Of a stretch of 24,000 nucleotides of DNA, positions 3,599 to 21,082 are shown one piece after another. Numbering within the stretch: the stretch's first letter is position 1; every line of letters begins with the position of its first letter. Under the pieces are notes generated by a model that was given only the letters and a program-made list of their open reading frames with translations, did no database searches and was not told the DNA's origin. This stretch comes from Pleomorphomonas oryzae DSM 16300 (lineage in GTDB: Bacteria; Pseudomonadota; Alphaproteobacteria; Rhizobiales; Pleomorphomonadaceae): assembly GCF_000422965.1 (NCBI RefSeq), contig NZ_AUHB01000002.1, positions 326,119 to 350,118 of the forward strand. The letters are read 5' to 3'. Position numbers and translations under genes: made by a program.

Positions 3599-4786
3599 AT
3601 GAAGATCGTTCGAAGCGTGGCTTTTCTTCCTGTGTTGTTGCTTGCTTCCTCCCTGTTCGCTCGGGCCGATGACGGGCTCGGAAAATGGCAGTTCGACCCG
3701 AGCCCCGACACCCCTCACGCGACCCTCGATAGCGGCCCCGATTTTCCGAAGATTGAGGTGTCGTGTGTTGCTGCCGATGCTCTCGGCTACCGGTTCACGA
3801 TGCGAAACGGCGCAGCTCCCAACTACATCACGCTCCTTAACTACGATAACAACGAGGACCTCAGTATCGAGGCCTCGGGCTTCATGCCCCGGAAAAACGC
3901 CGCGCGTCTCATTGGCTGGTTGGCCGAGACCCTGAAGCAAGCCAAGGCGGACGGGAGCAACCGGCCCGAAAGCGAGTTCGTAACGCAGTTTGGCGTCAAC
4001 GGCGGCATGCCGACGCCCGTCCCGATCGGTGGGCTGATGGCCGTCCGTGAACGGCTACGCCCCCTATGCGCTGGAAATAAGGAAGCTGCTGCAACCTCAC
4101 CGGCATCGGTGCCGATGACGGATGGACCGAATGAGCGCTTTTACGGCGTGTGGCTGGGCCTGAACAGCGATCTGCACTTGAACCCGGACGGGACGTACAA
4201 GATCACATTCGCTGACCGTAGTGAGACCGGCAGTTGGTCGGCCAGTGAGACGGACTTGGTGTTCAAATCCGAGGAGTCTGTCTCGGTCTGTGGCTACGAC
4301 AAAACCGTTGAAACCCATCTCCTTCTCGCGCCATCCGCCAGCGCCGGGGCAAGCACGCCCTGCCGCATACAGGGGGCGTACTGGAGTGAGAAACGCGCGG
4401 AAACCAGCGCTTCCACGATGCCATTCGCCTGTACCGTGAATGCAAATGCCGTCCGGAGAATCTCAAGCCCACTGCTTCAGTTCAGAATATTCGATGGCTC
4501 AGGCCCTGTTCTTCTGGCCGCCGACAGCAAGGACAGGATCGTTTATCTCCACAAGGACGGCGTGGACAGGCATTTTGTCGTGCGTAACGACAACATCTAT
4601 CAGGACCATATTGCCTTTATGGTCAGATTCGACAAAGGAGATTTTCAGAACATCGAGATTTCGAAGGATGGCGGCATGTTTAACATGAGCTATTACCCAT
4701 CAAAATGCAGCCAATCCGGCGGTATGTCCGTATGTGCCCAAGTGGTTTCTTATCCCATTGGCACCTGCATGAAGGTGGTGCGATGA
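3599..4786 (+). CDS. Secreted hypothetical protein (395 aa)
   Basis: N-terminal signal peptide MKIVRSVAFLPVLLLASSLFARA/DD. Its stop overlaps the start of the next gene (ATGA at 4783-4786). No recognised domain. Confidence 0.7.
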   Translation: MKIVRSVAFLPVLLLASSLFARADDGLGKWQFDPSPDTPHATLDSGPDFPKIEVSCVAADALGYRFTMRNGAAPNYITLLNYDNNEDLSIEASGFMPRKNAARLIGWLAETLKQAKADGSNRPESEFVTQFGVNGGMPTPVPIGGLMAVRERLRPLCAGNKEAAATSPASVPMTDGPNERFYGVWLGLNSDLHLNPDGTYKITFADRSETGSWSASETDLVFKSEESVSVCGYDKTVETHLLLAPSASAGASTPCRIQGAYWSEKRAETSASTMPFACTVNANAVRRISSPLLQFRIFDGSGPVLLAADSKDRIVYLHKDGVDRHFVVRNDNIYQDHIAFMVRFDKGDFQNIEISKDGGMFNMSYYPSKCSQSGGMSVCAQVVSYPIGTCMKVVR

Positions 4787-5349
4787 CGGAGTCCCTCCCC
4801 ACCACCCTGAAATCCCCAAGGGAGCCGTCTTCCGTGCCTCGTTTGAACCTTTTGGCGGCCCTTGCCGCCCTGATCCTCACGGGCTGCTATCAGGTAAACG
4901 ATCCCGTCCTGACCAAGGGCGAGTATGCCCCCGTGGCGGGGTCGTATGCCTGCACCAACCGGCTGGACGGCTCGCCACTCGTCGACAGCCTTGTGGAGCA
5001 GAAAAGCGGCTTCTTCAGCCCGGATTACCGCTACCTGACCGACGACAAGGTCGAGGTGATGTTTGCTGACCTTGGTAATGGCCTCTACCTCTCGCAGGTG
5101 AACCAGAAAGGAAACCCCATTGCCTTGGCCTTCATGGAGCCGACCGCCAAGGGCATGGAGTTTTACGTGGTGAACGCCATGCTGGCGGCACCGCAGATCG
5201 ATACGCTCTCGCGTCAGAACGGCGTTACACCCCACCTGCTTCAGACGGGGTGGATACCGCTTTCGGGCACCGCCGCTGACATCAAGGCGTTCCTTGCCAG
5301 CCACTCGAAGGGAATGCTTCTGCCCGTCCTGAGCTGCACGAAGAAATAA
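4783..5349 (+). CDS. Putative lipoprotein (188 aa)
   Basis: An internal ATG at 4783 with GAAGGTGG upstream is preferred over the track start at 4705. LNLLAALAALILTGC is a signal peptide with a lipobox Cys. ATGA overlap gives translational coupling with the upstream gene. Confidence 0.65.
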   Translation: MTESLPTTLKSPREPSSVPRLNLLAALAALILTGCYQVNDPVLTKGEYAPVAGSYACTNRLDGSPLVDSLVEQKSGFFSPDYRYLTDDKVEVMFADLGNGLYLSQVNQKGNPIALAFMEPTAKGMEFYVVNAMLAAPQIDTLSRQNGVTPHLLQTGWIPLSGTAADIKAFLASHSKGMLLPVLSCTKK

Positions 5350-5371
5350 CGAAGCGAGACGCTTAGGTGCC

Positions 5372-5926
5372 CTATGGGGCGTAGGTCATGAGCCAGACCT
5401 TAAATTCAGGGCGCATTTTCCCAATTGAAGCAAGGTAAAGCGCAATATCAAACCGGCGATGTCCTTCAATGAGCAAATACCCTTTGGGAATAGGATGATA
5501 GGTTGGAACGGGATCAATTCCTGGCTGAAGGTGACCGTCGAGATTGTTCAGGACAATAATGGGCGCTGGGAAATCGCCGTGTTCGAACATGTACGCTGGC
5601 GTTTTGTAGGGCGAATTCCTGAGCCTTCTCACTATGGCTTGTCCACGTTCACGACATACTCTCTGATCTCCGCTGAAGTTCGACGAGCCAGACAAAATGC
5701 TTTCCAGACATTCTGGAGTCCAATCCACCAGATCAAATCGATACCAAGCGGACGGAAGGTAGCTAAATGGCGAGTGGCTCCAGTGCTCGTGGAGCCAAAA
5801 TCTCGCAACGTTCTCCGGCACGCGGGGGAAAGCATCGCGGACGCGAGCCCACCACTCCTCAAATGGAGTGGCTACTCCTCCACCCTCTTCAAATTCGGGA
5901 GCAAGATGCACGGGATAATTGTCCAT
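5372..5926 (-). CDS. Hypothetical protein with a C-terminal ParB/Srx-like GHRR motif
   Basis: The ORF track gives 5372..6028. I prefer Met35 (MDNYPVHL..., 5926) because the 6028 start overlaps the upstream gene by 38 nt. LLIEGHRRFDIALYL resembles the ParB N-terminal domain GxxR motif. The assignment is weak. Confidence 0.5.
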   Translation of the reverse strand: MDNYPVHLAPEFEEGGGVATPFEEWWARVRDAFPRVPENVARFWLHEHWSHSPFSYLPSAWYRFDLVDWTPECLESILSGSSNFSGDQRVCRERGQAIVRRLRNSPYKTPAYMFEHGDFPAPIIVLNNLDGHLQPGIDPVPTYHPIPKGYLLIEGHRRFDIALYLASIGKMRPEFKVWLMTYAP

Positions 5927-5990: not shown

Positions 5991-6857
5991 CTATCGCCGG
6001 TAAGGCAAACGGCGGATGTAAGTTTCATCTCGCAGGGCTTGAAGACGCTGTTCCAGAGTCGGATGTGTTGACAGAAGCGTCTTCGGATTGGCGCGGATCA
6101 TCATCCGGGCATAGGCGAGGTATTCCGGGGACGGCTGTGCTCGGTCGGCATGGATGTCCCGAAGGGCCTCCATCATGGCGTCCTTGCCGATAAGGGCCGC
6201 TCCGGTGGCGTCGGCCCAGAACTCCCTTGTCCGGGAGAGGCGCATCAGCATCAGTTCGCCCAGGAACCCGAGGATCCACCGCACGAAGACCTTCCCGCGT
6301 TCCCACCAGAAAAGATACCACGTGAGGGCGTTCTGGAACGAGGTGGCATACTGCATCCGCCGCATGTCCCGGTTGGCCACATGAGCCAGCTCGTGCGCGG
6401 CGATCGCCAGAATGCTGCGCGCCGGTAGTCGGTCCACAAGGCTCTGGCTGAAACTCACCACGGCTTTTTGCGGGGATGAACCCGCCGCGAAGGCGTTCAT
6501 GGCCTGATCCGGGTAGACGCCAACGGATGGGCACGGGATGTCCAGCTTCGTGGCCAGTGCCGCCACCCCTTTTGTCAGCGGATGATCTGCCGGAAGAATC
6601 TTGGTTCGGGTATGGCTGATGACCCGGTCGCGGGACCGGGACACGCCGATCGAGCCGAACACAAAGCCAAAGACCGGCACAAACAACAGCGCCGGGAAGA
6701 AGAACGTCACGACAGCCAGTGTGCCGAAGCCCGTAAGGCCCAAGAGAATGCTGCCTAGGAAAACCCCGAGCCAGGCGCTCAGGATCAAAGCGATTTTCTG
6801 CCCAACGCCGCCGTGGGCAAGGCGGCGGGTATCCAGTTCCGGTAAGGTCGCGCTCAT
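5991..6857 (-). CDS. Membrane-anchored M48-family (HtpX-like) zinc metalloprotease
   Basis: N-terminal hydrophobic helices (ALILSAWLGVFLGSILLGLTGFGTLAVVTFFFPALLFVPVFGFVFGSIGV). AAHELAHVANRD carries HExxH. The start lies 3 nt after the stop of the upstream ATPase gene. Confidence 0.8.
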   Translation of the reverse strand: MSATLPELDTRRLAHGGVGQKIALILSAWLGVFLGSILLGLTGFGTLAVVTFFFPALLFVPVFGFVFGSIGVSRSRDRVISHTRTKILPADHPLTKGVAALATKLDIPCPSVGVYPDQAMNAFAAGSSPQKAVVSFSQSLVDRLPARSILAIAAHELAHVANRDMRRMQYATSFQNALTWYLFWWERGKVFVRWILGFLGELMLMRLSRTREFWADATGAALIGKDAMMEALRDIHADRAQPSPEYLAYARMMIRANPKTLLSTHPTLEQRLQALRDETYIRRLPYRR

Positions 6858-6860
6858 AGC

Positions 6861-8522
6861 TTATTCCCCCACGGTATAAGCCCCGGCCCGTTCCTTCAGC
6901 GACGGGCTCAGGGAATACTCGGTCAGATGCAGCTTGGTCGGCCGAAGCCCGCGCACCTGTAAAATGCTCTGGCGGATGCCCCGGCCCGTCCAGCCTGAAA
7001 GCAGCTCCATCACCTCATCCGGCGTGAGCAGGGGGCGCCCGGTAAGCTCCACGGAGTCGGAAGGTTCTGCGGAAAGATCCCGGTTCCCGGAAAAGGATCG
7101 ATAGGCCACCGTGGTTTGCCCGAGATAGCTTCCCACCAGCCCGCCAGTCATCGGATCGTCGACCCCGAAGAACTGCTTCACGGAGCAATTGAAGAACGGA
7201 CGCCAGGCATCCTGAGGATAATGCTCACGCAGGGCGCCCTCGTCTTGAAGGAAGAACCAGAGGCGCACGCCCGCACCCGCATGGGTGCGAATGGCGTCCC
7301 GGAATTCCGGGTAGGAGCCGAGCGACAGGAATTCATCGAGGACGAAGAGGACGGGGATATCCGGCCGGGTCGGGTTCCGCGTCATCGCGCTCAAGGCGGA
7401 GCGCAGGATGACTTTGAGCCACGGGGCGTAAGGCGTCATGAGATCAAACGGCACATCGAGGTAGACCGTGGCGGGCCGGTCTTTTAGATCCTCGAAATCG
7501 AAATCATGCTGGCTGCATGTCTGGTAGATACCGTCATCGCTCCACAGGGACAGTTTGGCGTTGAGCGTGTCGCGCAAGGTGGGGAGTGCTTTGCCGCGAT
7601 CCTTGCCCAGAACATTGGTGGCCGCTTCCTGAACGCTGGGCATGTCGTCCAGCCCCGCCATGAGGGAGGCCAGAGCCCTGAAGTCATCCAGCGGTGCCGC
7701 CAGAAACCGCCGCACCGTGCCGAGGTGGCGCAGAGGCTCGGGGCACTTTTTCTTCACGTAAAGAATCGTGGCCGTCACGAAGGCCACGGCGTCTTCGATG
7801 AAGAACGCCGATGCACGGGGATCGGCGGGAAACATGAGTTCCGCAAGGGCACGGGCGTCCGATTGGGACCGGACGCGCGCCAGCGGGTTATAGCTGCTCC
7901 GGATAAAGTTCGCCGTTGTGGGGTTGGTGCCGTCATCGAACGGGGCAAGCCGGTAGACGGGGCCGACGTTTTCCCGGCGCCACTTGGACGTGGCCGCGTA
8001 CAGCTCTCCCTTGGGGTCGAGGACAACGGCGCTGCCCTTGTACCGGAGCAGGTTCGGTATGATCGCTGTGACGCCCTTACCCGACCGTGTCGGCGCAAGG
8101 GTGAGCAGATGCCCCTCTTCGTCCCAATGAAAGAAGCGTGGCCCGCTTTGCCCTTGAAAGGTCCCCAGAACGATGGAGCGTGGGTTGTCCAGGGCCTCCC
8201 GTCCCTTGAGTTGGTTCCCAATCTCGCTCTCATCCGCCCACCGGCCCGAGCCGTGGATGGGCGGTGGTGAAGTCAGAAGATCGTCCCGTTCCTTCTGGGC
8301 TTTGCGGGCTCGCTCGGCCCTTTCCAGAACACCCCGGTGGTCTTTGCCTGCCTTGATAGCGTCCACAACGTCTTGAGCTATCTGGGGACCATAAAGGGCA
8401 TCGACCTGGTTCCGGACACGCCTCGCGTGCAGCGTCCGGAAGAACCAGGTGCTCGCTTTGTGATAGTGCTGAAAGTCCCCTAACGTCCGCGACAGGTCGC
8501 CGACCGGATCGAAATCTTTCAT
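6861..8522 (-). CDS. TraG/VirD4-family type IV coupling protein-like ATPase with no N-terminal transmembrane region
   Basis: GSGRWADESEI, Walker A LAPTRSGKGVTAIIPNLL and Walker B PVLFVLDEFLSLG. There is no hydrophobic stretch in the first ~150 aa. Confidence 0.8.
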   Translation of the reverse strand: MKDFDPVGDLSRTLGDFQHYHKASTWFFRTLHARRVRNQVDALYGPQIAQDVVDAIKAGKDHRGVLERAERARKAQKERDDLLTSPPPIHGSGRWADESEIGNQLKGREALDNPRSIVLGTFQGQSGPRFFHWDEEGHLLTLAPTRSGKGVTAIIPNLLRYKGSAVVLDPKGELYAATSKWRRENVGPVYRLAPFDDGTNPTTANFIRSSYNPLARVRSQSDARALAELMFPADPRASAFFIEDAVAFVTATILYVKKKCPEPLRHLGTVRRFLAAPLDDFRALASLMAGLDDMPSVQEAATNVLGKDRGKALPTLRDTLNAKLSLWSDDGIYQTCSQHDFDFEDLKDRPATVYLDVPFDLMTPYAPWLKVILRSALSAMTRNPTRPDIPVLFVLDEFLSLGSYPEFRDAIRTHAGAGVRLWFFLQDEGALREHYPQDAWRPFFNCSVKQFFGVDDPMTGGLVGSYLGQTTVAYRSFSGNRDLSAEPSDSVELTGRPLLTPDEVMELLSGWTGRGIRQSILQVRGLRPTKLHLTEYSLSPSLKERAGAYTVGE

Positions 8523-8639
8523 GGCAGATGCCCCACAGAGGGCAGCCTGCCGCAGTTTTCCAAATGTTAATATTTGTGGCGAATGCGTATCGTCGGTTGA
8601 GTATCTAGTGACTTACCCGCAAGGCATCCGATGCCCTAG

Positions 8640-9557
8640 TCAATATCGCCCGTGCCATGATCTCGCTAGCCGGTCGGAGAGACGCTGCTTGGCGGTGCGA
8701 TCAGCGTCAGGGTCGAACTCATCGTCTTCTTCTTCGAATTCAGGCCATAGCATAAGCAGCGCATAGCCTTCCTGCTGATGAAGAACTTGCTCGTAAAGAG
8801 CGGGCGGGCGCTTGCCCCATTCAGATATGAGCCATTGGTCACTAGAAGCTTCCTCAAGCTGGGATATTGCAGTCAATCCGCGTGTGCGCCAATAAATGCA
8901 AGATCGAGGCACTAAGCCGCCTTGCTCCACGCTAAGACGAGGAGCTTTTAGAGCCCGATAAGACCGCAAGACCTTGCCTTCATGGACAACAATCATGGTG
9001 ATAGGCTCACCATGATACAGCGTATAAGCACGCGCGGCGGCGTCTTTACTAACTTCGAAGTCTTTATGAATCCGGAGGACGGTAGCAATATTGGGGTCAC
9101 CGTAGCGTGAAAGGTAAGGGCGCAGCAGCGGCGGCGGCATGAGCATTAACGCGGCAAACTTGTTTGCCTCCACTTCCATGCGCTCATAAGCGTTCTGCTC
9201 AGCTGCCGACCAGAGTCGCATATCGTCGCGAGAGCAAAGGAAAGCATCGTTCTTCACTGGCCGGTGCATTGGGATGAGGAAGTGCCCGAGTTCATGCCCG
9301 ATGGTGAATCTGCGGCGCCCAGCGCGCGCCAGCTTGTTAACAAGGATGACGCCGCGACTACGGTGGGCATCCATCAATAGGCTACCTTCGAAACCTTCCG
9401 CTTCAAGCTCGCGGATTTCGATAATATCGAGTGCAGCTGCCAGCGCCTCGATCGGCACAGGTGGGGCGAGTCCCGGCTCGGCTTTTAGAATTTTGGTCAC
9501 AAGCCCCTCAGGGGAGCCTGTTCCATCCAAATCGAGCCGGGTTATCTGCATGCTCAC
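8640..9557 (-). CDS. ImmA/IrrE-family metallopeptidase with an extra C-terminal domain (305 aa)
   Basis: FTIGHELGHFLIPMH carries HExxH. A 4-nt overlap with the upstream XRE gene is typical of repressor/antirepressor-protease pairs. Confidence 0.85.
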   Translation of the reverse strand: MSMQITRLDLDGTGSPEGLVTKILKAEPGLAPPVPIEALAAALDIIEIRELEAEGFEGSLLMDAHRSRGVILVNKLARAGRRRFTIGHELGHFLIPMHRPVKNDAFLCSRDDMRLWSAAEQNAYERMEVEANKFAALMLMPPPLLRPYLSRYGDPNIATVLRIHKDFEVSKDAAARAYTLYHGEPITMIVVHEGKVLRSYRALKAPRLSVEQGGLVPRSCIYWRTRGLTAISQLEEASSDQWLISEWGKRPPALYEQVLHQQEGYALLMLWPEFEEEDDEFDPDADRTAKQRLSDRLARSWHGRY

Positions 9558-9874
9558 CCATCCTTGCTTTTTAAGCGCTCGATCATTTGCTGAATGACAT
9601 CCAAGTCTCGACCGGAAAGGTCCTTTAGTTCCCGATACATTCCCAGCACCCGAGACCCTTCCTCTTCCTCTGAGGGATTCTCACCAACGAGATCGATAAC
9701 GGCAACGCCTAGCTTGTTCGCCAGGTTGGTGAGCAGCTCTATCGATGGATTCTTGCTGCGTCCGGTTTCCAGGTCCCAAATATGAGCCTTTGACACTTTC
9801 GTCGCGTCAGCCAGGTCCTGCAGCGACAACTTTTTTTTCATCCGGAACGCTTTGATCCGGTCCGCAAGGGCCAT
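9554..9874 (-). CDS. XRE-family helix-turn-helix transcriptional regulator (106 aa)
   Basis: RIKAFRMKKKLSLQDLADATKVSKAHIWDLETGRSKNPSIELLTNLANKLGV is the canonical Cro/C1-type HTH pattern. Confidence 0.9.
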   Translation of the reverse strand: MALADRIKAFRMKKKLSLQDLADATKVSKAHIWDLETGRSKNPSIELLTNLANKLGVAVIDLVGENPSEEEEGSRVLGMYRELKDLSGRDLDVIQQMIERLKSKDG

Positions 9875-9929
9875 TACCTACCTCTAAGTTGTTGATTATA
9901 AGCGAGGACATTCCCTGTCCATACGAATT

Positions 9930-9976
9930 TGTACCAGAATACTTGACTCCCGGCAATGTACAACTTAATCTGTACG
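9930..9976 (+). promoter_or_regulatory. Candidate sigma70 promoter of the ubiquitin-like operon with TGTAC operator-like repeats
   Basis: TTGACT (9943-9948), a 17-nt spacer, then TAATCT (9966-9971). TGTACC (9930-9935), TGTACA (9957-9962) and TGTACG (9971-9976) lie in the 146-bp divergent region between the XRE gene and the 10021 ATG. Confidence 0.35.
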
Positions 9977-10020
9977 AAAGTGTTTGGTCATCCGAACGCT
10001 GAGTCAAGAAAGGGCCTGCC

Positions 10021-10737
10021 ATGACCATTATCGATACGGCGGAAGGCGATCTCGCCAATGATCGCGACCGGTTCACCGCCCAGATTGCCGACGAGACGTT
10101 TGCGTTTCGCGACTTTCACTTCAACGACCGGAGAGTAACGGGTTCGCAGATTGCCGAAGCGTTCGGCGCATATCCGCTGACCGATTATGTGGTCCTCCAT
10201 CACCTTCCGAACCACCAGCTTGAAACGCTTCGGCCGAATGAGACGGCGGACCTGAAAGACGGCGCCCACCTGTTCGTCATCAGGGGCGACGGTACTGACC
10301 GTTTCTTCGTTGACGGCATCCCTCTCGAATGGCCACGCAAGGCTTTGACAGGCGCTAACATCAAATGGTTGGCCGGAAAGGATGAGGATCTTGAGCTGGT
10401 GCTGGAGCGTCAGGATCAGCCAGACAAGGTTATCGGCGATGATGAAGAAGTCCGCATAGGCAACCCAGGTGTTGAAAAGCTCTACACTCGCCCTGCGCAG
10501 GTCAGCATAACCATTGTCGTCAATACTCGGCCGAAGGTCTGGAACAAGAAGCGGATTAGCTTTGAAGAGCTGGTCGCTATCGCGTTTCCGACGCCGCCTC
10601 CTGGTCAGAATATCGTCTACACGATTGGCTATTTTGACGGCCCTCCGAACCGGCCGGAAGGTTCACTAACCGAAGGGGAATCTGTGCGCGTCCGCGACCA
10701 GATGGTGTTCGATGTCAAATTCACTGATAAGTCTTAA
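10021..10737 (+). CDS. Multiubiquitin-type protein with three tandem beta-grasp-like repeats (238 aa)
   Basis: Three repeats of about 65-75 aa. The second reads FFVDGIPLEWPRKALTGANIKWLAGK...EVRIG. The third reads ITIVVNTRPKVWNKKRISFEELVAIAF...ESVRVRDQMVF. An AAAGGG SD-like element precedes the ATG. Recognised by pattern, not by search. Confidence 0.75.
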   Translation: MTIIDTAEGDLANDRDRFTAQIADETFAFRDFHFNDRRVTGSQIAEAFGAYPLTDYVVLHHLPNHQLETLRPNETADLKDGAHLFVIRGDGTDRFFVDGIPLEWPRKALTGANIKWLAGKDEDLELVLERQDQPDKVIGDDEEVRIGNPGVEKLYTRPAQVSITIVVNTRPKVWNKKRISFEELVAIAFPTPPPGQNIVYTIGYFDGPPNRPEGSLTEGESVRVRDQMVFDVKFTDKS

Positions 10738-11878
10738 CCCCGACCTCCAACAGCTCGTGGCAGAGGGCTACGAGCTTGAGATTGTTGCGGACCATCTTGT
10801 TGTCCGCAACGTCCCCTTCGTCAATGCGGAGCGACAGGTTCGGCGCGGCTCACTTATCTCCGAGCTGAACCAGGCGTCCCGAATACCGGGGACGCACGTC
10901 ATCATGTTTGAGGGTGGCATTCCTTGCAACAAGAGCGGGATGCCTCTCAACCAAATCTTCCTTTCTACGGATCAGCAAAAGATCGCTGAGCGCCTCGTGG
11001 CTGATTGTTCGTTCTCGAGCAAACCCCCGGAGGGCTATCCCAATTATTATTTGAAGGTCACGTCATACGTCGCAATTTTGCAGAACGAAGCGCAGGCAAT
11101 TGACCCAAGCGCTACTGCACGGACTTGGCGCGTTATCCCTAACACAGATGCCGACTCCCCCTTTGAATATCTCGATACCGCGTCCAGTCGTGCAGGCACT
11201 ACCTATGCGAGTCGCAAACTAAAGCAGGAAAATGTTGCTATTGTGGGGCTCGGTGGCACAGGATCCTACGTGCTGGATCTCATCGCCAAGACGCCAGTTC
11301 GCAACATTCATCTCTTCGATGGCGACAAGTTCGGCCAACATAATGCGTTTCGCTCGCCCGGCGCGCCGTCACTGGGGCATCTCCAGACCATCCCTTACAA
11401 GGTGGACCATTGGGCGAGCATCTACAGCAATATGCATCGTGGCATTGTCCCGCACCGCGCCTCAATCGATGCCGAGAATGTCCATTTATTGAATGAAATG
11501 GACTTCGTGTTTGTGTGTGCTGATGCTGGTTCAGCAAAGAGTTCTCTCTTCGCGGAACTGGAGCGCGCGGGTGTTCCTTTTATCGATACGGGCATGGGGC
11601 TGGATCTCGCAGGGGACACGCTGCATGGCATGCTCACCGTTACGCTCAGCACGCCCAACAAGCGGGACCATGTTTCTAAACGCGTATCGTTTGCCGGGGA
11701 TGGCCACGAGAATATTTACGCGAAGAATATCCAGGTTGCGGATCTTAACATGCTCAATGCAGCGCTGGCTGTGGTGAGATATAAGAGGTTTCTCGGTTTC
11801 TACGATGATAAACGGCGTGAGCATTTCATGAATTATGTGATTAGCGGCAACACGCTTATCAGCGAGGATCGGACATGA
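10712..11878 (+). CDS. ThiF/E1-like adenylyltransferase with a ~173-aa N-terminal domain of unassigned (possibly E2-like) function
   Basis: NVAIVGLGGTGSYVLDLIAKT is the Rossmann GxGxxG motif. IHLFDGDKFGQHNAFRSPG is the ThiF-type motif. The N-terminal domain contains THVIMFEGGIPCNKSG. It overlaps the upstream gene by 26 nt. Confidence 0.85.
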   Translation: MSNSLISLNPDLQQLVAEGYELEIVADHLVVRNVPFVNAERQVRRGSLISELNQASRIPGTHVIMFEGGIPCNKSGMPLNQIFLSTDQQKIAERLVADCSFSSKPPEGYPNYYLKVTSYVAILQNEAQAIDPSATARTWRVIPNTDADSPFEYLDTASSRAGTTYASRKLKQENVAIVGLGGTGSYVLDLIAKTPVRNIHLFDGDKFGQHNAFRSPGAPSLGHLQTIPYKVDHWASIYSNMHRGIVPHRASIDAENVHLLNEMDFVFVCADAGSAKSSLFAELERAGVPFIDTGMGLDLAGDTLHGMLTVTLSTPNKRDHVSKRVSFAGDGHENIYAKNIQVADLNMLNAALAVVRYKRFLGFYDDKRREHFMNYVISGNTLISEDRT

Positions 11879-12324
11879 GGCCTCCCGTTATTCTGCGTCA
11901 TGTGTTCGTCGATTCCGTGCCTGAACAGATGGAAGATGGAGTTATCTATGTCTCCATTCGCTACCGTACCGTTATGCACCGGTGTTGTTGCGGATGTGGA
12001 AGCGAGGTGGTCACACCACTAAGTCCGACCGATTGGAAACTCACCTTCGATGGAGTGTCGGTGTCGCTGGACCCGTCAGTTGGTAACTGGAGCCTGAATT
12101 GTCGTTCTCACTACTGGATAAAGAACAACAAAGCGGTTTGGGCTGGCGCTTGGTCGGACGAGAAGGTTGCTGCTGGCAGGGTAAACGATAAGCAGGTCAA
12201 GGAGCGTTATTTTGACCGATCCAGTCCAGCCCAGCCATCAGGGCCTATTGCCGCACCTTCGAAGATGACAAATGGATGGACTGCTCGGATCAGATCTCTT
12301 TTTTCCAAGTTTTTGCGACACTAA
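11875..12324 (+). CDS. DUF6527-like Cys-rich protein (149 aa)
   Basis: ATGA overlap with the E1 gene. HRCCCGCGSEVVTPLSPTDWKL...LDPSVGNWSLNCRSHYWI matches the pattern I recall for DUF6527 proteins found beside multiubiquitin and ThiF genes. Confidence 0.7.
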   Translation: MRPPVILRHVFVDSVPEQMEDGVIYVSIRYRTVMHRCCCGCGSEVVTPLSPTDWKLTFDGVSVSLDPSVGNWSLNCRSHYWIKNNKAVWAGAWSDEKVAAGRVNDKQVKERYFDRSSPAQPSGPIAAPSKMTNGWTARIRSLFSKFLRH

Positions 12325-12338
12325 GAGTGAGAGAAAAT

Positions 12339-12809
12339 ATGGGGGACGGTCATAACTTTAGGCAACTAAAGGAGGCAATTCTCGCCCACAGCCAAGCGCA
12401 AGACTGGGAAATTGCACGCAAGGAATGGAGCCTCGTTCGCGTAGCTACCGCCGATGAGCCGGAGACTTGCCCATGCGGGCATTTCCCGATTCTTGAGATT
12501 TGCACCATTGCTAATCAGATAACTGGACACCGGATCGATGTGGGGAACCGCTGCGTTAAGCGGTTTCTAGGCGTGCGTTCGGATCTGATCTTCGCGGCCA
12601 TTAAGCGCATTCAATCGAATATAGAGAAGAGCCTGAATGGTGATGCCATCGTCTTCTTTCATCAATGTGGTGTTCTAAATAATTGGGAATACAGCTTCCT
12701 TCAGGATACGATGCGACTACGACAGTTAACCCTTGCTCAGAAAGTTAAACGGCAGTCAATCAACGAAAAGGTCATTGCCGCCGTCGCGAAGCGAGGATTC
12801 CATGGATAA
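12339..12809 (+). CDS. Hypothetical protein with a CxCGH...C...C putative metal-binding motif (156 aa)
   Basis: Start moved to ATG 12339 (GAGTGAGAG upstream), 14 nt after the previous stop. The motif is ETCPCGHFPILEICTIANQITGHRIDVGNRCVKRF. Confidence 0.6.
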   Translation: MGDGHNFRQLKEAILAHSQAQDWEIARKEWSLVRVATADEPETCPCGHFPILEICTIANQITGHRIDVGNRCVKRFLGVRSDLIFAAIKRIQSNIEKSLNGDAIVFFHQCGVLNNWEYSFLQDTMRLRQLTLAQKVKRQSINEKVIAAVAKRGFHG

Positions 12810-12826
12810 AAGCTTGAGGGAATGGC

Positions 12827-13279
12827 GTGGAAAAAGTAGTGATCGAGGAAATCTTAACAAAATCCCTATCAGATCTCTATGCCGAGGAGGGGATGCTTTT
12901 CAAACTCGATGTCGCGGAGCGTACTATCTGCGCCCGCTTTGCGGCGATCTTACAGCGATATTTCACCAACCATTCGGTTCACGCTGAATACAATCGGCAT
13001 GGTGTTTATCCGAAAGAAATTGACATGCCGAATGCCGATGGCGTGTTGACCTCCAGCCTGGTGAGTCCGGATATTATCGTTCATTTGCCGGGACACGACC
13101 AGGCAAACATCCTTGTTATTGAAGCGAAAAAGACATCGAACCCTATGTCGGACCTTGCCGATCTTTCGAAGCTGGAGCGGATTAAGCATCAAATTGGGTA
13201 TCAGCATGCGGTTTTTCTGCGGCTACCAATTGGCGACGATGCATTGGCTGAGAACGTTCAGATTAGTTGGGTCAGCTAG
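12827..13279 (+). CDS. PD-(D/E)xK nuclease-fold protein (150 aa)
   Basis: GTG start with GAGGGA 7 nt upstream. E31 (VAERTI), HAEYNR, P81-D82 (SPDIIVH) and E99-A-K101 (LVIEAKK) follow the canonical order and spacing of restriction-endonuclease-like motifs. Confidence 0.65.
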   Translation: MEKVVIEEILTKSLSDLYAEEGMLFKLDVAERTICARFAAILQRYFTNHSVHAEYNRHGVYPKEIDMPNADGVLTSSLVSPDIIVHLPGHDQANILVIEAKKTSNPMSDLADLSKLERIKHQIGYQHAVFLRLPIGDDALAENVQISWVS

Positions 13280-13482
13280 ATTTCATTCTCACTTCCGGTC
13301 ATGCCATACGCCGCCGGCGGAACCGCCGGTTTCAAAGGCTCAAGCGTGAACACGCGAGCCCCTTTTCCTTTAAAGGCTCAGCGGAAGCTGTCCTTGGAGA
13401 CGACAGCAGAACTGCTGTTTTAGAGCGAAACGCCTTCGGAACCGAAGGCTAAGCGGGTGCTTTGGCAAACACCGGTAGCAAA

Positions 13483-13512
13483 CAGCTAAGGCGCCCAACG
13501 GCGCCTTAGCTG
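13483..13512. terminator. Strong GC-rich hairpin between convergent genes (possible bidirectional terminator)
   Basis: CAGCTAAGGCGCC (13483-13495), loop CAAC, GGCGCCTTAGCTG (13500-13512), a 13-bp perfect stem. There is no long T-run on either side. Confidence 0.45.
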
Positions 13513-13519
13513 CTCCTCC

Positions 13520-13822
13520 TCACCACGAAATCACCAGTTCCGGATATTCTCCCGCGCTCAAAGGGCGGCGGATATCCGGCTCGGTGAACGTCGGTCGCCA
13601 GACGTAGTGGAACTCCTCCTCATCAAGCCATTCCTCAAGGGCGCGAGCCGCGTCGGTATCTGACAGGTCGAACGGCAGCTCCTGGACAATGCGGTAATGC
13701 CGATATCCTTGGAACGCGACCTCGTCGATAGCCGTAGCAACGGCTGCCGGGCTGAATATCTTGCCCGCATACTTGTTCCGCAGGTTGGTCGCCATCATGA
13801 AATTTCCCTCGGAGCGTTTCAT
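13520..13822 (-). CDS. Hypothetical acidic protein (100 aa), translationally coupled to the upstream integrase
   Basis: Only the last 100 codons of track ORF 13520..14323 are credible. ATG 13822 overlaps the integrase TGA (ATGA). The sequence begins MKRSEGNFMMATNLRNKYAGK... and contains ...EEWLDEEEFHYVW. Confidence 0.5.
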   Translation of the reverse strand: MKRSEGNFMMATNLRNKYAGKIFSPAAVATAIDEVAFQGYRHYRIVQELPFDLSDTDAARALEEWLDEEEFHYVWRPTFTEPDIRRPLSAGEYPELVISW

Positions 13823-15235: not shown

Positions 15236-15830
15236 TCACCCACCTTCAGCCCCGCCCCATGCTCGTATCCTGGCGCGCATCCGACACGGGTGGCAACTAT
15301 GCCCTGCCCGCGACAACCCGCCAGTCGTGTGCCGCCGCTACGCGGTCTCCCGAGCACAGACTGGCAGAACGCCGCTTAAGGCAGAGCAACACTGCCCATC
15401 GACGACGCTTTATTGACTTGCAAAAGGGACCGCGCTTCGCCTGGGGGAATGTGATTAACAGCCGCCCCAAAAGGTAAACGATTACGCAGCAAACGACCTC
15501 GAAGCTCCCATGCACCGTTATCGATCTGACTTTCATGCCGTTGCGCTTCAACTGAAATGCTGTTGTCTCTTTCTGTTGATCTTTAAAGGAAGTACAAGGA
15601 ATCGCCCAATTTGGCATTTCCCCGCTATCGAGCTAGTGTTAATTAGATAAGGTATTGGACAATTTTCTAGAGATTGCTCAGCCTCACATAGTGTGAAATA
15701 TAGTGTAATCTGAGTTATTTTCCGTCGTGCGTGTAAACATAGTGGACTAATCTCTAAGAGATATAATATATTTATGTAGAATTTTGCCACGAAAAGTCTG
15801 CTGTCGTGTAAATGAACCCAGGAGAAAAAA

Positions 15831-16571
15831 ATGAAATCTGCGATTGTGACGGGTGCGTTAAAGCCTGGAATTGGCGCGGCTACCACTAGGCTATTGTTGT
15901 CCGAGAATTATAAGGTATTTGGGACACGAGATGTGGGCTCAGAAATAGAAGAGCTTGGAGTAGATTCCGGTTCACTAGAGATACATGAGGTAGATCATGG
16001 ATCATCAGCCTCAATTGATGAATTTTGCGAGAAATTTCGAGATTTGAAAATCGATTCGTTTGTTAACACTCATATGTTTTTCAATATGGAGAACCAAAGT
16101 GAGTTTGATCACGAGCAATGGGAAAGAAGTATATATGTAAATCTTACCATGCCAAATAGGTTTTTCAGAAATTTGTTTCCGTATCTATCCGACGGATCAA
16201 GCATTGTTACCATATCAAGCACTGAGGCTTTTATAGGTTCTTTCGGAGCCAGTGCTTATGCCGCGTCAAAGGCCGCAATACATAATTTAATTAAAACATG
16301 GGCCAATGTTGGAGGCAAGAAAGGTATTCGTTCAAATGCGATCGCTGCGGGTTGGATCGGCGGGGTAATGGATACTGATGATGTTTTTAACCTATCGCGA
16401 GAAATCACGCCTTTGGGTCGATTGGGTAGTCCGGAGGAAATAGCGAATGTGGTAGCCTTTTTGCTTAGCGACAAGGCATCATTTGTGAATGGATCTGTTA
16501 TCACCGTAGATGGAGGTTATTCCGGGGTGGATAGAATATCTAAGTTTGAATTCGATAGCGTTCAACAATGA
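15831..16571 (+). CDS. Short-chain dehydrogenase/reductase (SDR) family oxidoreductase
   Basis: VTGALKPGIGAAT (TGxxxGxG), SSTEAF...YAASKAA (Ser...YxxxK) and PLGRLGSPEEIANVVAFLLSDKASFVNGSVITVDGG. GGAG lies 8 nt upstream of the ATG. Confidence 0.9.
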   Translation: MKSAIVTGALKPGIGAATTRLLLSENYKVFGTRDVGSEIEELGVDSGSLEIHEVDHGSSASIDEFCEKFRDLKIDSFVNTHMFFNMENQSEFDHEQWERSIYVNLTMPNRFFRNLFPYLSDGSSIVTISSTEAFIGSFGASAYAASKAAIHNLIKTWANVGGKKGIRSNAIAAGWIGGVMDTDDVFNLSREITPLGRLGSPEEIANVVAFLLSDKASFVNGSVITVDGGYSGVDRISKFEFDSVQQ

Positions 16572-16611
16572 CAATTTCAATGTATTGGTCGTCGATTGGG
16601 GGGGGGGCATT

Positions 16612-17520
16612 ATGGCGTGGTGGTGGTCCTTAGTTGTAGCTCTTGTCGAGGTCTTTTTCCTCTTCGGAGTGGGAATATATCTTTCGGCCGATCCTAAGTA
16701 TTCTGCATTGTCGGCCATTTGGATGATCGTCAGCGTCGTCCTTGTAGTTCATAGGCAATTCCTAGTCTTTGAATTTAGGAATGAAATGAAGGAAACCAAA
16801 AAAAACCTGGAAAATACTTTCAACGTGCTGGTCTCCCCAATTAAGAAAGCATCCGAAATTGTCGACCTAAGTGCAAGCTCTGAAATTGGAAGTGTTGGGA
16901 TTATACTGTCTGAGTATTTACGTTTGAAAGAGGAGAGATTATCTCCGGAGAGGACAAGAATAATAGAATCCGCAATAGCTTCATTGAAGTTATTAAATTC
17001 TTCTATGAAGACACCAACTCTTGAGGAGCCTGATTTTTATAGATGGCTGTACCGAGAGTTTGACGATGCTGCGCCGGGATCACGAATACAGATAGTGTCA
17101 ATGGATGAACCTGTTGAATGGAATAATACGATACAAGAACAGACATATTTTGAGAAAAATAAAGCAGCAGCTAAGCGGGGGGTAATGGTTGAGAGGGTAT
17201 TTTTCTTTTCTGCGGAGAGGCTAAAGGAAGCACGGAAAAATAAGTTTATACTAGCTCATGCAGAGGCGAACACGACTCGACTTATTGGGCGCAGGGTGGA
17301 CCGAGAAAGTTTCATTAAATCAGCCCCCACCGCTGTTAAGGATGCGGGGCAGGGGTTCGTATTAATCAATAGCAAATTTGCAATAGTCGATGTGTTCTCC
17401 CCCGATGGTCAGGTTCGCGGATATGTTACTTTTGATCAATCTGAAGTTCAAAAATATAAAGAAACGTTTCAAAAATTCTATGGGTTATCTGCCCCTCTTG
17501 TATTTGACGAGAATATTTAG
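16612..17520 (+). CDS. Membrane-anchored hypothetical protein (302 aa)
   Basis: Start moved to ATG 16612 (MAWWWSLVVALVEVFFLFGVGIYL...). There are two N-terminal hydrophobic helices and a ~230-aa soluble C-terminal region with no motif I recognise. A G10 tract lies 4 nt upstream. Confidence 0.6.
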   Translation: MAWWWSLVVALVEVFFLFGVGIYLSADPKYSALSAIWMIVSVVLVVHRQFLVFEFRNEMKETKKNLENTFNVLVSPIKKASEIVDLSASSEIGSVGIILSEYLRLKEERLSPERTRIIESAIASLKLLNSSMKTPTLEEPDFYRWLYREFDDAAPGSRIQIVSMDEPVEWNNTIQEQTYFEKNKAAAKRGVMVERVFFFSAERLKEARKNKFILAHAEANTTRLIGRRVDRESFIKSAPTAVKDAGQGFVLINSKFAIVDVFSPDGQVRGYVTFDQSEVQKYKETFQKFYGLSAPLVFDENI

Positions 17521-17525
17521 AACGA

Positions 17526-18170
17526 TCATTCTTCCGAGGGGGTATAAATCTGAACGTCCAAATCATCCGGCCTCTTCTGTACCGAATTAGAATCGTAGTA
17601 GTTCATGGGAATAGATATACGCGAAAAATGCCCCCGGAGAGGGGCGACGCGATGCGGAATATTTCGTGCGTCGAAGCAAATAAAGAGGCCTTTCCTTGGC
17701 CATACAACAGCATTTCTTTTTTCGTCGACGTTCCTAAAAACGAGCGCCCCGCCCATTCTTGGATTACATGTGGTACAAAATAGTAGACCCGTTACTGGAT
17801 TGCTGTCCACGTGCCATTCGTACCGAGAGCCAATGCCCTCAATATGATTGATATTTACCGAACTTTTCTGATCGACGGCTACGAATAATTCTTTTCCTTG
17901 GCAGCGGCTCGCGAAGTTGAGAAGAGGCCCCGCGTAGAGAGTCATAAGCCATGGAAGCGAAGCGTTGATGGACGAGCCGTCAACTACATAGACCGGAATT
18001 TTTTGATTTTTCTTCGTCTCACGGCTGGTGGAGCCTTCACCGGTGAGAATAGTCTTTATAGAGTGCTCGCGAATCGTGTGCGAAATTTGGTTATCCCAAT
18101 GGGGTGGTAACAATCCAGCCCCTAATATATCCCAAGAATGATATGGGCGCCATGTCGAGTAGCTATTCAT
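17526..18170 (-). CDS. 2OG-Fe(II) oxygenase superfamily protein (214 aa)
   Basis: YEWHVDSN (HxD), IPHRVAPL (distal His) and SRISIPMN (RxS) in the canonical order. It overlaps the upstream methyltransferase gene by 8 nt. Confidence 0.75.
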   Translation of the reverse strand: MNSYSTWRPYHSWDILGAGLLPPHWDNQISHTIREHSIKTILTGEGSTSRETKKNQKIPVYVVDGSSINASLPWLMTLYAGPLLNFASRCQGKELFVAVDQKSSVNINHIEGIGSRYEWHVDSNPVTGLLFCTTCNPRMGGALVFRNVDEKRNAVVWPRKGLFICFDARNIPHRVAPLRGHFSRISIPMNYYDSNSVQKRPDDLDVQIYTPSEE

Positions 18171-18924
18171 ATTTTACCCCCGAAAAAATAATCTCGTGGC
18201 TGAGCTGTGGGGCGATCTTTGATAGCGCAAGTTCTAGGATTAATGATATTCTAGATTCCCAAACGCCCCCCAAAACACTATGGTATTCGATCTCCTCCAC
18301 GCGAAGACCGGTACCTGGTAGTAAAGCGCTAAAGCGACTTTCACTCATTACCTCGGAATGCACGCCAGTGGAAGTAGTCCTATGTCCTCTCGTCCTATAA
18401 ATCTCTTCGGTCGCTCTCTCCCGGGCTAAAACCCGTCTTAGTGAACTTTCGTTTAGAAACGAGAGAGTGAAATGCCCATTGGGCTTAAGAGCTGTGCCGA
18501 TCGCTGATAAGAGTGCACGCGTGTCAGACATAAATGATGCAGAAGTATTTATGGAAAAAATATAGTCAAATGACTGTGGTTCAAGAAAAGTAAGCGCCGT
18601 AGTGGCGGGGGCGCAAATCAAACGAACACCAGGGTGCCTGGATTTGAATAGGCGGATCATGCCATCCGAAATATCGATGCCAGTATATGTTATACCGCTG
18701 TGCACTGCGCTAATAAGGCGAAACCCAAGACCGCCTCCGCAGCCAATATCGACAATGTTAGTGGCTCTGGAATTTTGGATATGGTCCAACAATAAACGTT
18801 GGGTTTTCCGGTCCTCAGTTCTAGACCAATAATTGTCATATAAAATATCGTATTGATTGGAGATATCATTCCAATAATCTAGGGATTGTGCGGTTATATT
18901 TTCGGATTGGAACTCTGTATCCAT
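18163..18924 (-). CDS. Class I SAM-dependent methyltransferase (253 aa)
   Basis: NIVDIGCGGGLGFRLI is motif I (DxGxGxG), followed by YTGIDISDGM and a typical downstream beta-strand pattern. Confidence 0.85.
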   Translation of the reverse strand: MDTEFQSENITAQSLDYWNDISNQYDILYDNYWSRTEDRKTQRLLLDHIQNSRATNIVDIGCGGGLGFRLISAVHSGITYTGIDISDGMIRLFKSRHPGVRLICAPATTALTFLEPQSFDYIFSINTSASFMSDTRALLSAIGTALKPNGHFTLSFLNESSLRRVLARERATEEIYRTRGHRTTSTGVHSEVMSESRFSALLPGTGLRVEEIEYHSVLGGVWESRISLILELALSKIAPQLSHEIIFSGVKYE

Positions 18925-19228
18925 CGGAATCGGTCCCTAAAACGCGACACATTCTTCTAGAGTTGACATATTAGCTCTAGATCTCAGGTGAGTGAGGGAG
19001 GTATCTCGGTAGTCGCAGTTTGAGGAAGGGTACCTGATGGAAGTGCTCTGAGTCACCGTTTATGGAATCGGAAGTTGTGAAAAAGGTACCTAAACTTTTG
19101 GCGAACGTTTGGAAAAGGCTTGCCAGGGAATTGGCTCGGCAAATTGAAGGGATCGGTTGACGCTGTATTTTTGCACTCCGAACATCTGTACATTGGCCGA
19201 TCGGTATGGTGCGGTAGCTACCTTATTG

Positions 19229-19711: not shown

Positions 19712-21082
19712 TCACACGCCGAGCAGTTCGCCCAACCTCTGGGTGACAGGACGCATAGGGTCAACAAGGCCGAGATCGTAGATCATGGTTGTCGTGAGGT
19801 TGCCCTTATGGTCCACATAGTGGGAGATCGCCTCGTGCGACACTCCCTGACCAGCTAGCATCATCGAGATAGCGATCCGCTTGAGGTCGTAAAGCTGAAA
19901 ATACTCTGGCACGCCCGGCAGGGCTTTGAAGCGCGCCAGCCCTTTCCGAAAATTATCGCGTGGCTGATTGGGATCAGTGTGGGACGGAAATAGGAGCTTG
20001 GCGTCCGGCCAGCGTTGCTGCTGTGCCTGGACCATAGCGGCCACCCTCGGATGAATGGGAACGGACCGATAGGCGTATTCGTAGATAGAGTGCGAGAGTT
20101 TGATGCCTTTGGTGTTGTGCTTATGCCAGACGAGGGCTTCCAGGTCGAAATGGTCGAACTCCGCGCGGACCAAGTCGCTGGGTCGCGCCACAGTGAGAAA
20201 TAGGATCCCCATGAAGTTGCACAGTTCCAGCATCTGGTCATTGGCGACTGAGGCGTGACCCTTCACCAACGCCATATCGCGCTTGGCATAGCCGGTTAGT
20301 GTGCCACTCTCAGGGACTGCTTCGACAACCGGACAAAAGATATTGGCTGCGATTTGCCGTATCTGCTCGGTGGAATAATCACGGCGACGGCGAATCACTT
20401 TGCGGGCGCGGATCGGATGGCAAGGATTGCGCATATCGACCAACTGCATCCTGATAGCCCAGTTGAAAAGGGCTAGCACGTGCCGCAAGGCATTGTTGAA
20501 GACGTATGGCGACGCAAACTGCTTCTGATACCGCTCGATATCGAGCGGTCTGATGGAGGAAAGTGGCCTGTCCGCAAACATGGACCCGAAGTCGGTATAG
20601 CGTTTCCGGACATTATGGCCTCGGCGGCTGGCGATTTTCGGCGCTTTCTTCAGCCATTGGGCGGTGAGTTGGGTGAAAGAACCACGATATTCTTCGGAAA
20701 GTGCGTGAACGTGGCTTTCCCAGTAGTGATTGATCGCCTCCTGCACAGTTAGGAGATGGGCGCGACTCGTGTCGGCCTCAAAGTCAGGATTTTCTCCCGC
20801 ATCTAGCTTTTGAGCACGGTCGCGAACCGCCATGCGCGCTGATCCCACATTCAAGATTACGGTGGAACCGAGTGTCCTTCGATATGGTTTGCCGTTGAAC
20901 TGGTAGGCGTGAATGAAGGATTTTGCTCCCTGCGCCGTCACCCGAAGCCCAAGTCCTGAGATGGAGCCATTGCGGATGTGTCCATCCGCTCCAATAGGAT
21001 GATCCCAGTATATTTCTTGGTCTTTCCCGGCAGGGCAGCGAGCCCCGAAAACAAAAGTATCTGTGAGATATAGTTTAGGCAC
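19712..21082 (-). CDS. P4-like tyrosine integrase with an N-terminal arm-binding (DUF4102-type) domain (456 aa)
   Basis: The N-terminus LTDTFVFGARCPAGKDQEIYWD...GLGLRVTAQGAKSFIHAYQFNGKPYRRTLG is the typical arm-binding domain. Catalytic motifs are VARPSDLVRAEF (Arg), YDLKRIAISM and VDHKGNLTTTMIYD (His...Tyr). GTG start with GGAAG upstream. Confidence 0.9.
   Translation of the reverse strand: MPKLYLTDTFVFGARCPAGKDQEIYWDHPIGADGHIRNGSISGLGLRVTAQGAKSFIHAYQFNGKPYRRTLGSTVILNVGSARMAVRDRAQKLDAGENPDFEADTSRAHLLTVQEAINHYWESHVHALSEEYRGSFTQLTAQWLKKAPKIASRRGHNVRKRYTDFGSMFADRPLSSIRPLDIERYQKQFASPYVFNNALRHVLALFNWAIRMQLVDMRNPCHPIRARKVIRRRRDYSTEQIRQIAANIFCPVVEAVPESGTLTGYAKRDMALVKGHASVANDQMLELCNFMGILFLTVARPSDLVRAEFDHFDLEALVWHKHNTKGIKLSHSIYEYAYRSVPIHPRVAAMVQAQQQRWPDAKLLFPSHTDPNQPRDNFRKGLARFKALPGVPEYFQLYDLKRIAISMMLAGQGVSHEAISHYVDHKGNLTTTMIYDLGLVDPMRPVTQRLGELLGV

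Follow-up and report, generated by a model that had tools for sequence, protein, structure and literature searches.

A predicted Type II Bub operon with CapH/CapP regulators and two accessory genes at its 3' end in Pleomorphomonas oryzae

Bacterial ubiquitination-like (Bub) operons of Type II (6E.2), such as that of Escherichia coli ZDHYS365, code in order for a ubiquitin-like protein (Ubl) with three β-grasp domains, an E2-E1 fusion, and a DUF6527 protease (Ye et al., bioRxiv 10.1101/2024.11.21.623953). Conserved serine, arginine, and tyrosine residues of the fusion protein, BubBD, serve adenylation and oxyester transfer, and BubE, a serine protease with a C4 zinc site and a Ser-His pair, takes off the conjugates of the Ubl, BubA; the regulators CapH and CapP adjoin 31% of the published operons (Ye et al.). 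CapP is a single-stranded DNA-activated protease that cuts CapH, and the two form a DNA-damage-responsive repressor/peptidase pair (Lau et al., 2022, bioRxiv 10.1101/2022.04.27.489752). Here, we describe a locus holding both elements in a stretch of 24,000 nucleotides (nt) of Pleomorphomonas oryzae DSM 16300 (NZ_AUHB01000002.1, 326,119-350,118), hereafter the window, on which all coordinates are based. With a probability of about 60%, we read it as a Type II Bub operon that is inducible by DNA damage and carries two promiscuous accessory genes at its 3' end. The core is known, and what is new is a recurrent, undescribed accessory gene (gene 4) and a promiscuous nuclease gene (gene 5). An earlier note on this DNA had suggested an undescribed variant in which Ubl conjugation gates a nuclease; the core proved to be the Type II Bub already described, while the accessory genes are indeed new to the published tables. 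The locus is composed as follows.

8640-9557, minus strand: capP, an ImmA/IrrE-type zinc metallopeptidase with an HELGH motif (PADLOC capP, E 3e-51)
9554-9874, minus strand: capH, which codes for a helix-turn-helix (HTH) repressor, shares 4 nt with capP, and is transcribed away from the Bub operon (PADLOC capH, E 1e-25)
9875-10020: divergent promoter/operator region between capH and bubA
10021-10737, plus strand: gene 1 (bubA), first open reading frame (ORF) of a five-gene plus-strand block
10712-11878, plus strand: gene 2 (bubBD), overlapping gene 1 by 26 nt
11875-12324, plus strand: gene 3 (bubE), with an ATGA overlap with gene 2
12339-12809, plus strand: gene 4, 156 amino acids (aa), 14 nt after bubE
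12827-13279, plus strand: gene 5, 150 aa, 17 nt after gene 4
13300-13515: group of five GC-rich hairpins that separates gene 5 from convergent downstream ORFs

Domain matches indicate that genes 1-3 are a Type II Bub (6E.2) operon, in agreement with the earlier note, which had recognized a ubiquitination-like operon. The Pfam family Multi_ubiq was matched three times in BubA (E 5e-48), giving three β-grasp domains, within the one to three that characterize the Ubl of Type II Bub. BubBD matched DUF6791 at residues 10-156 (E 4e-49) and ThiF at residues 167-295, and scored 492 bits with NCBIfam PRK06153.1-4, whose cutoff is 352, as expected of an E2-E1 fusion. BubE matched DUF6527 (E 1e-24), and 2,493 of its homologues were retrieved. 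The triple β-grasp, ThiF/E1, and DUF6527 assignments made earlier were thus all borne out, whereas DUF6527 is not the E2-like partner for which it had been taken: the E2 is the extra N-terminal domain of about 173 aa in gene 2 (DUF6791). In an alignment with five other proteins (47-75% identity), the six BubBD sequences were invariant at S102 of the E2 (FSSKP), R214 of the adenylation domain (HNAFR), and Y336 of the crossover loop (IYAxNIQ), and BubE was invariant at C37/C39/C41/C76, a C4 zinc site, and at S68 and H79. By motif and offset, these would correspond to the catalytic E2 serine S106, the adenylation arginine R219, and the crossover-loop tyrosine Y342 of E. coli BubBD, and to C57/C59/C61/C99, S92, and H102 of Citrobacter BubE (Ye et al.). 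A Type II Bub operon would carry out ATP-dependent Ubl conjugation through oxyester intermediates. None of the five proteins matched a JAB family in Pfam, PADLOC, or NCBIfam, which sets the locus apart from the JAB-containing Ubl systems (Bil and Type I Bub) and agrees with the earlier remark that no JAB gene is present; the accompanying premise that there is no other peptidase was wrong, because BubE is itself a Ser-His protease. The C-termini of Type II BubA proteins (the window, L008, and L129-L132; L numbers denote comparison loci) read T-(D/I)-(K/Q)-S (...TDKS in the window). Their last residue is an invariant serine instead of glycine, and no extension follows it that would have to be processed. 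In PHROGs, genes 3, 4, and 5 had no match.

The earlier note overlooked capH and capP at 8640-9874, a published partner of Bub. The pair consists of an HTH repressor and an M78 zinc peptidase on the opposite strand, upstream of the operon that such modules control, and its divergent orientation matches the description by Lau et al., who also place the pair beside '6e' systems. CapP orthologues that are 70% identical occupy the same position in L008, L149, L150, L153, and L154. Within the region between capH and bubA lies a candidate promoter with the -35 hexamer TTGACT (9943-9948), a 17-nt spacer, and the -10 hexamer TAATCT (9966-9971), flanked by TTTGTAC (9928-9934) and GTACGAAA (9972-9979). 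TTGACT-17-TAATCT scores below the threshold of the promoter scan, and none of the five hairpins after gene 5 satisfies the T-tract rule of the terminator scan. Since the scans called neither site, the promoter and the hairpin cluster were judged by conservation and by folding. Identity to the orthologous locus of Dongia (L008) amounts to 84% over the region 9875-10020 but to 71% over coding DNA, and that locus keeps the two hexamers as well as both GTAC motifs (TTTGTAC and GTACGAAA). The sigma70-like promoter noted earlier is thus backed by its conserved hexamers, but not by the scan.

The five ORFs have exactly the overlaps and gaps reported before. The longest ORF of gene 4 begins at 12276, yet what 25 aligned homologues keep is the MGDG start at 12339, and gene 5 starts with GTG, 5 nt after a Shine-Dalgarno sequence, GAGGGA. 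The promoter scan placed no site between any of the five genes. At 14 and 17 nt, the two gaps are too short to hold signals of their own, and genes 1-5 are likely to lie on a single transcript. The hairpin cluster noted earlier stood up to folding (13270-13520, -107.9 kcal/mol, z = -5.2), and its hairpins are probably terminators serving both strands. When 8600-13400 was compared by megablast with genomes and plasmids of E. coli, nothing useful came up.

The locus thus shares with Type II Bub of E. coli the gene order, the lack of JAB, the Ser/Arg/Tyr set, the C4 zinc site and Ser-His pair, and the divergent CapH/CapP found upstream of nearly a third of published operons. It differs in having two further co-oriented genes after bubE, whereas the published Bub tables hold three genes only, and list the Croceicoccus operon with just its three Bub genes (Ye et al.); no mention of extra Bub genes was found in the literature searched. 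To place these two genes, 13 Bub loci including the window were compared. The nearest subclade, defined by CapP/CapH, a 238-aa BubA, and BubBD at least 72% identical, comprises eight loci including the window, which differ 3' of bubE.

Window: gene 4, then gene 5
L008, L149, L153, L154/L155, and L156: gene 4
L150: an unrelated gene of 314 aa (6468-7412) with no Pfam or PADLOC match
L151/L152: nothing

Gene 4 is the fourth gene in six of these eight loci, either overlapping bubE or 8-16 nt behind it, and the flanks of the loci differ. At L150, where the Bub operon is 74-77% identical, the unrelated 314-aa gene suggests that the fourth-gene position is variable. A more distant Type II Bub operon, on Croceicoccus p1 (L130), also carries gene 4 (40% identical), while none was found in the Bub operons of Rhizobium, Klebsiella, Acinetobacter, and L148. 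The Bub-linked copies of gene 4 group together in a distance tree and look as if they were inherited vertically with the block. Gene 5, by contrast, was found in none of the 12 other Bub loci. The synteny with the Ubl-E1-DUF6527 trio that the earlier note had proposed to look for therefore exists for gene 4 but not for gene 5. A second locus with Bub and gene 5 had been suspected because a BubE homologue (P0419) and a gene 5 homologue (P0132) lie on contigs of the same length (7590), but tblastn found no gene 5 in L148, and the agreement was a coincidence.

The DNA itself shows the same divisions. The window matches Dongia L008 from 8663 to 12176 (CapP to BubE) and then precisely over gene 4 (12339-12806), so that homology with the orthologous Bub block ends at the gene 4 stop codon, and it matches L127 from 12338 to 13202, over gene 4 and gene 5. 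From this pattern, it appears that three modules, namely the regulated Bub operon, gene 4, and gene 5, combine freely.

Gene 4 codes for a basic protein (pI 9.1) without a match in Pfam (E <= 1), NCBIfam, PADLOC, PHROGs, or the sequence profiles of the PDB (E <= 10). An exhaustive hidden Markov model (HMM) search placed it among 1,898 clusters at 50% identity, 1,070 of them at E <= 1e-10 and most with members of 150-170 aa; with no database match, it thus represents a large unannotated family. Residues C44, C46, and H48 (CxCGH), C55, and C72 are invariant among the 25 aligned homologues and probably form a zinc site. In the AlphaFold2 (AF2) model (pLDDT 87), two short helices are followed by a three-stranded sheet and five helices; the sheet, with the N-terminal part forming a β-hairpin region, bears C44-x-C46-G-H48, C55, and G69-N70-x-C72, and the C-terminus is a helical module, WEYxF...RKRxLSxxQ. 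Foldseek found no match in the PDB (best E 0.15) and only uncharacterized viral proteins in BFVD, including those of iridovirus and pithovirus. Several family members (P0230, P0244, P0242, P0256, P0264, and P0372) repeat the C-terminal WExxF...RKRxLSxKQ module two to four times. Among the 150 best representatives of the family, the longer proteins had this repeated module or unannotated extensions, with one sub-threshold match to Nuc_deoxyrib_tr, and none carried a gene 5-like domain that would indicate a gene 4-gene 5 fusion. On these features, gene 4 reads as a modular, non-enzymatic accessory that may bind nucleic acid or protein and would be co-expressed with induced defence operons. Two other identities were considered for it and dropped: an HNH nuclease, which the pattern CxCGHxPI...N...GNxC loosely recalls, is unsupported by Pfam, PDB profiles, and Foldseek and is a weak lead, and the B component of PD-Lambda-3 gave no HMM match. 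P0230 and P0239 have low-complexity N-termini of a eukaryote- or giant-virus-like kind.

The neighbourhoods of gene 4 are far more diverse than its place in Bub would suggest. Among the 44 genome loci retrieved with the gene 4 alignment, the Bub trio lies beside it in one (Dongia, L008) and gene 5 in none. The commonest context, in 12-14 of the 44, is a MerR-HTH/ResIII helicase and an ORF of about 80 aa directly upstream. Other genes on the 5' side, mostly at gaps of 3-16 nt, code for an OLD ATPase with UvrD (Gabija-like), DUF6119, DUF3644, an ImmA-like peptidase, or a LexA-like repressor, or, at a gap of 76 nt, an integrase; the genes on the 3' side are variable and often convergent. Plasmids gave 85 matching records, 75 of them conjugative. 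In a divergent plasmid clade, the gene forms a CapH-CapP-gene 4 operon, which stands opposite a CBASS (an antiphage signalling system based on cyclic oligonucleotides) of cyclase, E2, and SAVED-HNH on Agrobacterium and Sinorhizobium plasmids, and opposite a ThiF and metallohydrolase (6A-MBL-like) system in Methylobacterium. The literature searched on CapH/CapP does not mention a third gene in the module.

L134, 3766-5477; L137, 3275-4983; L138, 2929-4974: CapH-CapP-gene 4-like operons of the Agrobacterium, Sinorhizobium, and Methylobacterium plasmids

Gene 4 is accordingly a recurrent fourth gene of this Bub subclade with a wider affinity for CapH/CapP-controlled systems that contain an E2, and it also occurs where conjugation machinery is absent. 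Two other settings of gene 4 were noted. A module of a MerR-HTH and ResIII/DEAD helicase (about 680 aa), the ORF of about 80 aa, and gene 4, spanning about -2300 to +470 around gene 4, was seen at L004, L006, L007, L010, L012, L015, L019, L020, L032, L040, L041, and L136; its small ORF has two forms that are not homologous, one of them with CxxC...CxxC, and the module, often beside Shedu-like or ATPase genes, may be an uncharacterized defence system. On conjugative plasmids of enterobacteria (IncT Rts1; Klebsiella and Providencia; L135, 4983-6465; L140, Rts1, 4483-5387), a gene 4-like gene lies between an unannotated protein of 700-1,136 aa and an unannotated protein of 150 aa that overlaps it by 1 nt; the 150-aa protein is not gene 5-like by tblastn.

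Gene 5 matched PD-Lambda-3_A of PADLOC (E 3e-26) over positions 17-158 of the 159 of the profile. Twenty-eight homologues all keep E31, R32, the EYNRxG block, P81-D82, H86, E99, K101, D112, and K115. The AF2 model (pLDDT 91) had the Cas4-family ACE1 (9iab) as its best Foldseek match (E 5e-4, probability 0.98); the Cas4 protein SSO0001, RecE, AddB, NucC, and tRNA-splicing endonucleases were matched too, with 4ic1 and 3h4r among the structures. These matches are marginal, with TM-scores of about 0.35-0.4. With an HMM match, an invariant motif, and structural matches in agreement, the prediction of a PD-(D/E)xK nuclease fold with D82, E99, and K101, made already in the earlier note, is sound. Gene 5 shares the core fold and the D...ExK motif with nucleases of the Cas4/RecE/AddB type, but it is a minimal stand-alone domain without the cysteines of an Fe-S cluster.

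PD-Lambda-3 is a two-gene abortive-infection system of E. coli (Vassallo et al., 2022), and gene 5 matches its A component (about 159 aa) over the full length, although it is just 37% identical to the A protein of an E. coli plasmid. None of the five proteins matched the B component (HEPN-like, TIGR02391, about 267 aa), to which gene 4 is unrelated, and hairpins and convergent ORFs lie 3' of gene 5; in a genuine PD-Lambda-3 pair on E. coli p22Q34-1, the B protein scores 1e-179. As B has no counterpart here, the locus is not a PD-Lambda-3 system.

Homologues of gene 5 likewise accompany many operons. Neither Bub nor gene 4 was present in any of 80 metagenome loci surveyed on the gene 5 side. 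Homologues that are 53-60% identical close CapH/CapP-controlled CBASS operons of cyclase, E2, and patatin (L052, 3597-8441; L064; L057), and at L052 the homologue overlaps the patatin stop by 4 nt. At L046 (904-8450), AbiEi/AbiEii are inserted between the CBASS and the gene 5 homologue, which also follows AbiEi/AbiEii in Mesorhizobium L141 and a RES-domain operon in Sphingobium L144. With a HEPN partner, it forms a true PD-Lambda-3 in L125, and in one setting it stands alone between Qat and type IV secretion system (T4SS) genes. Tight gene 4-gene 5 pairs without Bub were found at L127, with a divergent 284-aa gene upstream, and on a JGI contig. Gene 5 reads as a predicted extra nuclease effector of the abortive-infection type. 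With CapH/CapP-regulated CBASS (Lau et al.), to whose operons homologues of genes 4 and 5 are joined in other bacteria, the window has in common the two regulators, their orientation, and an expected induction by DNA damage; it differs in that its cargo is Bub and not a cyclase-effector pair.

If the locus is a DNA-damage-inducible Bub operon with two accessory genes, CapH would be bound at the conserved GTAC-flanked promoter in the resting cell. DNA damage or phage infection would activate CapP, CapH would be cleaved, and its loss would give one transcript over all five genes. Gene 5 would most likely have arrived alongside gene 4 or in its wake, the two forming a gene 4-gene 5 cassette, and control of gene 5 would be transcriptional, by de-repression from CapH and perhaps with the help of gene 4, and would not involve Ubl conjugation. 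Transcriptional control of the nuclease is the more likely because gene 5 accompanies many unrelated operons and otherwise never Bub. Several points weigh against this account. The presence of gene 4 in six of eight subclade loci and the co-clustering of its Bub-linked copies fit an integral Bub component equally well, and the sample of Bub loci is small (n = 13). Gene 4 has no fold or sequence match to anything characterized, the proposed co-transcription of genes 1-5 is read from their spacing, and the sole characterized relative of gene 5, PD-Lambda-3, includes a HEPN-like partner that is missing here. Moreover, Bub is not known to protect against phage, and its authors saw no such protection in E. 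coli (Ye et al.), so that a role in defence is itself presumed.

Among the other explanations, we regard as unlikely, but deserving of real attention, that gene 4 is an integral fourth Bub component, be it a substrate adaptor or E3-like zinc finger, a target of conjugation, or a factor that regulates BubBD or BubE, and that gene 5 is incidental. Its recurrence after BubE between differing flanks, its presence in the divergent Croceicoccus operon, and the clade formed by its Bub-linked copies all argue for such a role, as does the fact that its other CapH/CapP-linked contexts all hold an E2-type conjugation enzyme (E2-CBASS, and 6A-MBL-like with ThiF); the published tables, in turn, contain three genes only. 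Yet 43 of the 44 genome loci of close homologues are without Bub, and the gene sits after helicases, Gabija-like genes, DUF6119, DUF3644, an integrase, and LexA- or ImmA-like regulators with no Ubl, E1, or E2. It also belongs to the regulator operon rather than the effector operon on the CBASS plasmids, and it is absent from L150 and L151 of the same subclade and from four more distant Bub operons. A bolder version is a long shot: the gene 4 family, of about 1,900 clusters, might consist of zinc-binding adaptors for CapH/CapP-controlled E2-type systems (Bub, E2-CBASS, and 6A-MBL), supplying the missing specificity, target, or E3-like factor and here coupling Bub conjugation to the gene 5 nuclease. 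If this were true, gene 4-gene 5 would be the first effector arm of Bub.

Effectors regulated by conjugation exist in Type II CBASS, and this precedent, together with the tight packing of genes 4 and 5 behind the trio and the lack of an established effector or phenotype for Bub, speaks for the gating of the nuclease by the Ubl pathway that the earlier note had put forward, with gene 5 as a Bub effector activated or released by conjugation. We consider it highly improbable, given that gene 5 accompanies Bub in this window only, that its nearest homologues lie last in CBASS, AbiE, or RES operons or come after gene 4 where Bub is absent, and that DNA homology to the orthologous Bub block stops short of it; the nuclease at the end of the operon is probably an add-on that the Ubl machinery does not control. 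It is also improbable that genes 4 and 5 are selfish elements, akin to homing endonucleases or cassettes, that settle at operon 3' ends within defence islands without a role in defence. Both genes are small, sporadic among syntenic loci, and nearly always operon-terminal with tiny gaps; DNA homology breaks at ORF edges, the fold of gene 5 is one used by some homing enzymes, and the gene 4 motif loosely resembles HNH. However, gene 4 lacks HNH support in Pfam and Foldseek, the characterized relative of gene 5 functions in defence, neither a target-site signature nor a repeat signature turned up, and the Bub-linked gene 4 copies look as though they descended vertically along with the block.

The surroundings of the block in the window include three integrase-family genes, a TraG/VirD4 homologue, and an M48 peptidase. 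The block has a GC content at third codon positions (GC3) of 0.53-0.64, against 0.74-0.75 in the adjoining T4SS coupling protein and integrase genes. The lower GC3, the integrases, and the TraG/VirD4 homologue fit island cargo, as had been proposed earlier, and support horizontal acquisition of the locus. The TraG/VirD4-type coupling protein (553 aa) and the M48 peptidase (5991-8522, minus strand) lie directly beside capP, and the window holds no T4SS genes other than the coupling protein. Farther away, a 741-aa radical-SAM protein (90-2315, minus strand) has a weak PADLOC match to pVip, prokaryotic viperin (E 7e-11), over its N-terminal 220 aa or so only. A low-GC block at 15500-19000 (0.41-0.47, against about 0.6 nearby) codes for an SDR reductase, a 2OG-Fe(II) oxygenase, and a methyltransferase (PADLOC mad2-like); it is followed by the third integrase (19712-21082) and looks like a separate cargo module.

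The locus also carries a caution, in that close packing in a defence-island operon is no proof of a functional pathway. The biochemistry of Bub is solved, while its target, effector, and phenotype have not been established, and genes 4 and 5 are concrete candidates for functional tests of Bub or E2-CBASS. Gene 4 and the PD-Lambda-3A-type nuclease repeatedly join operons controlled by CapH/CapP, suggesting that inducible defence promoters may be shared by stacked, exchangeable effector genes.

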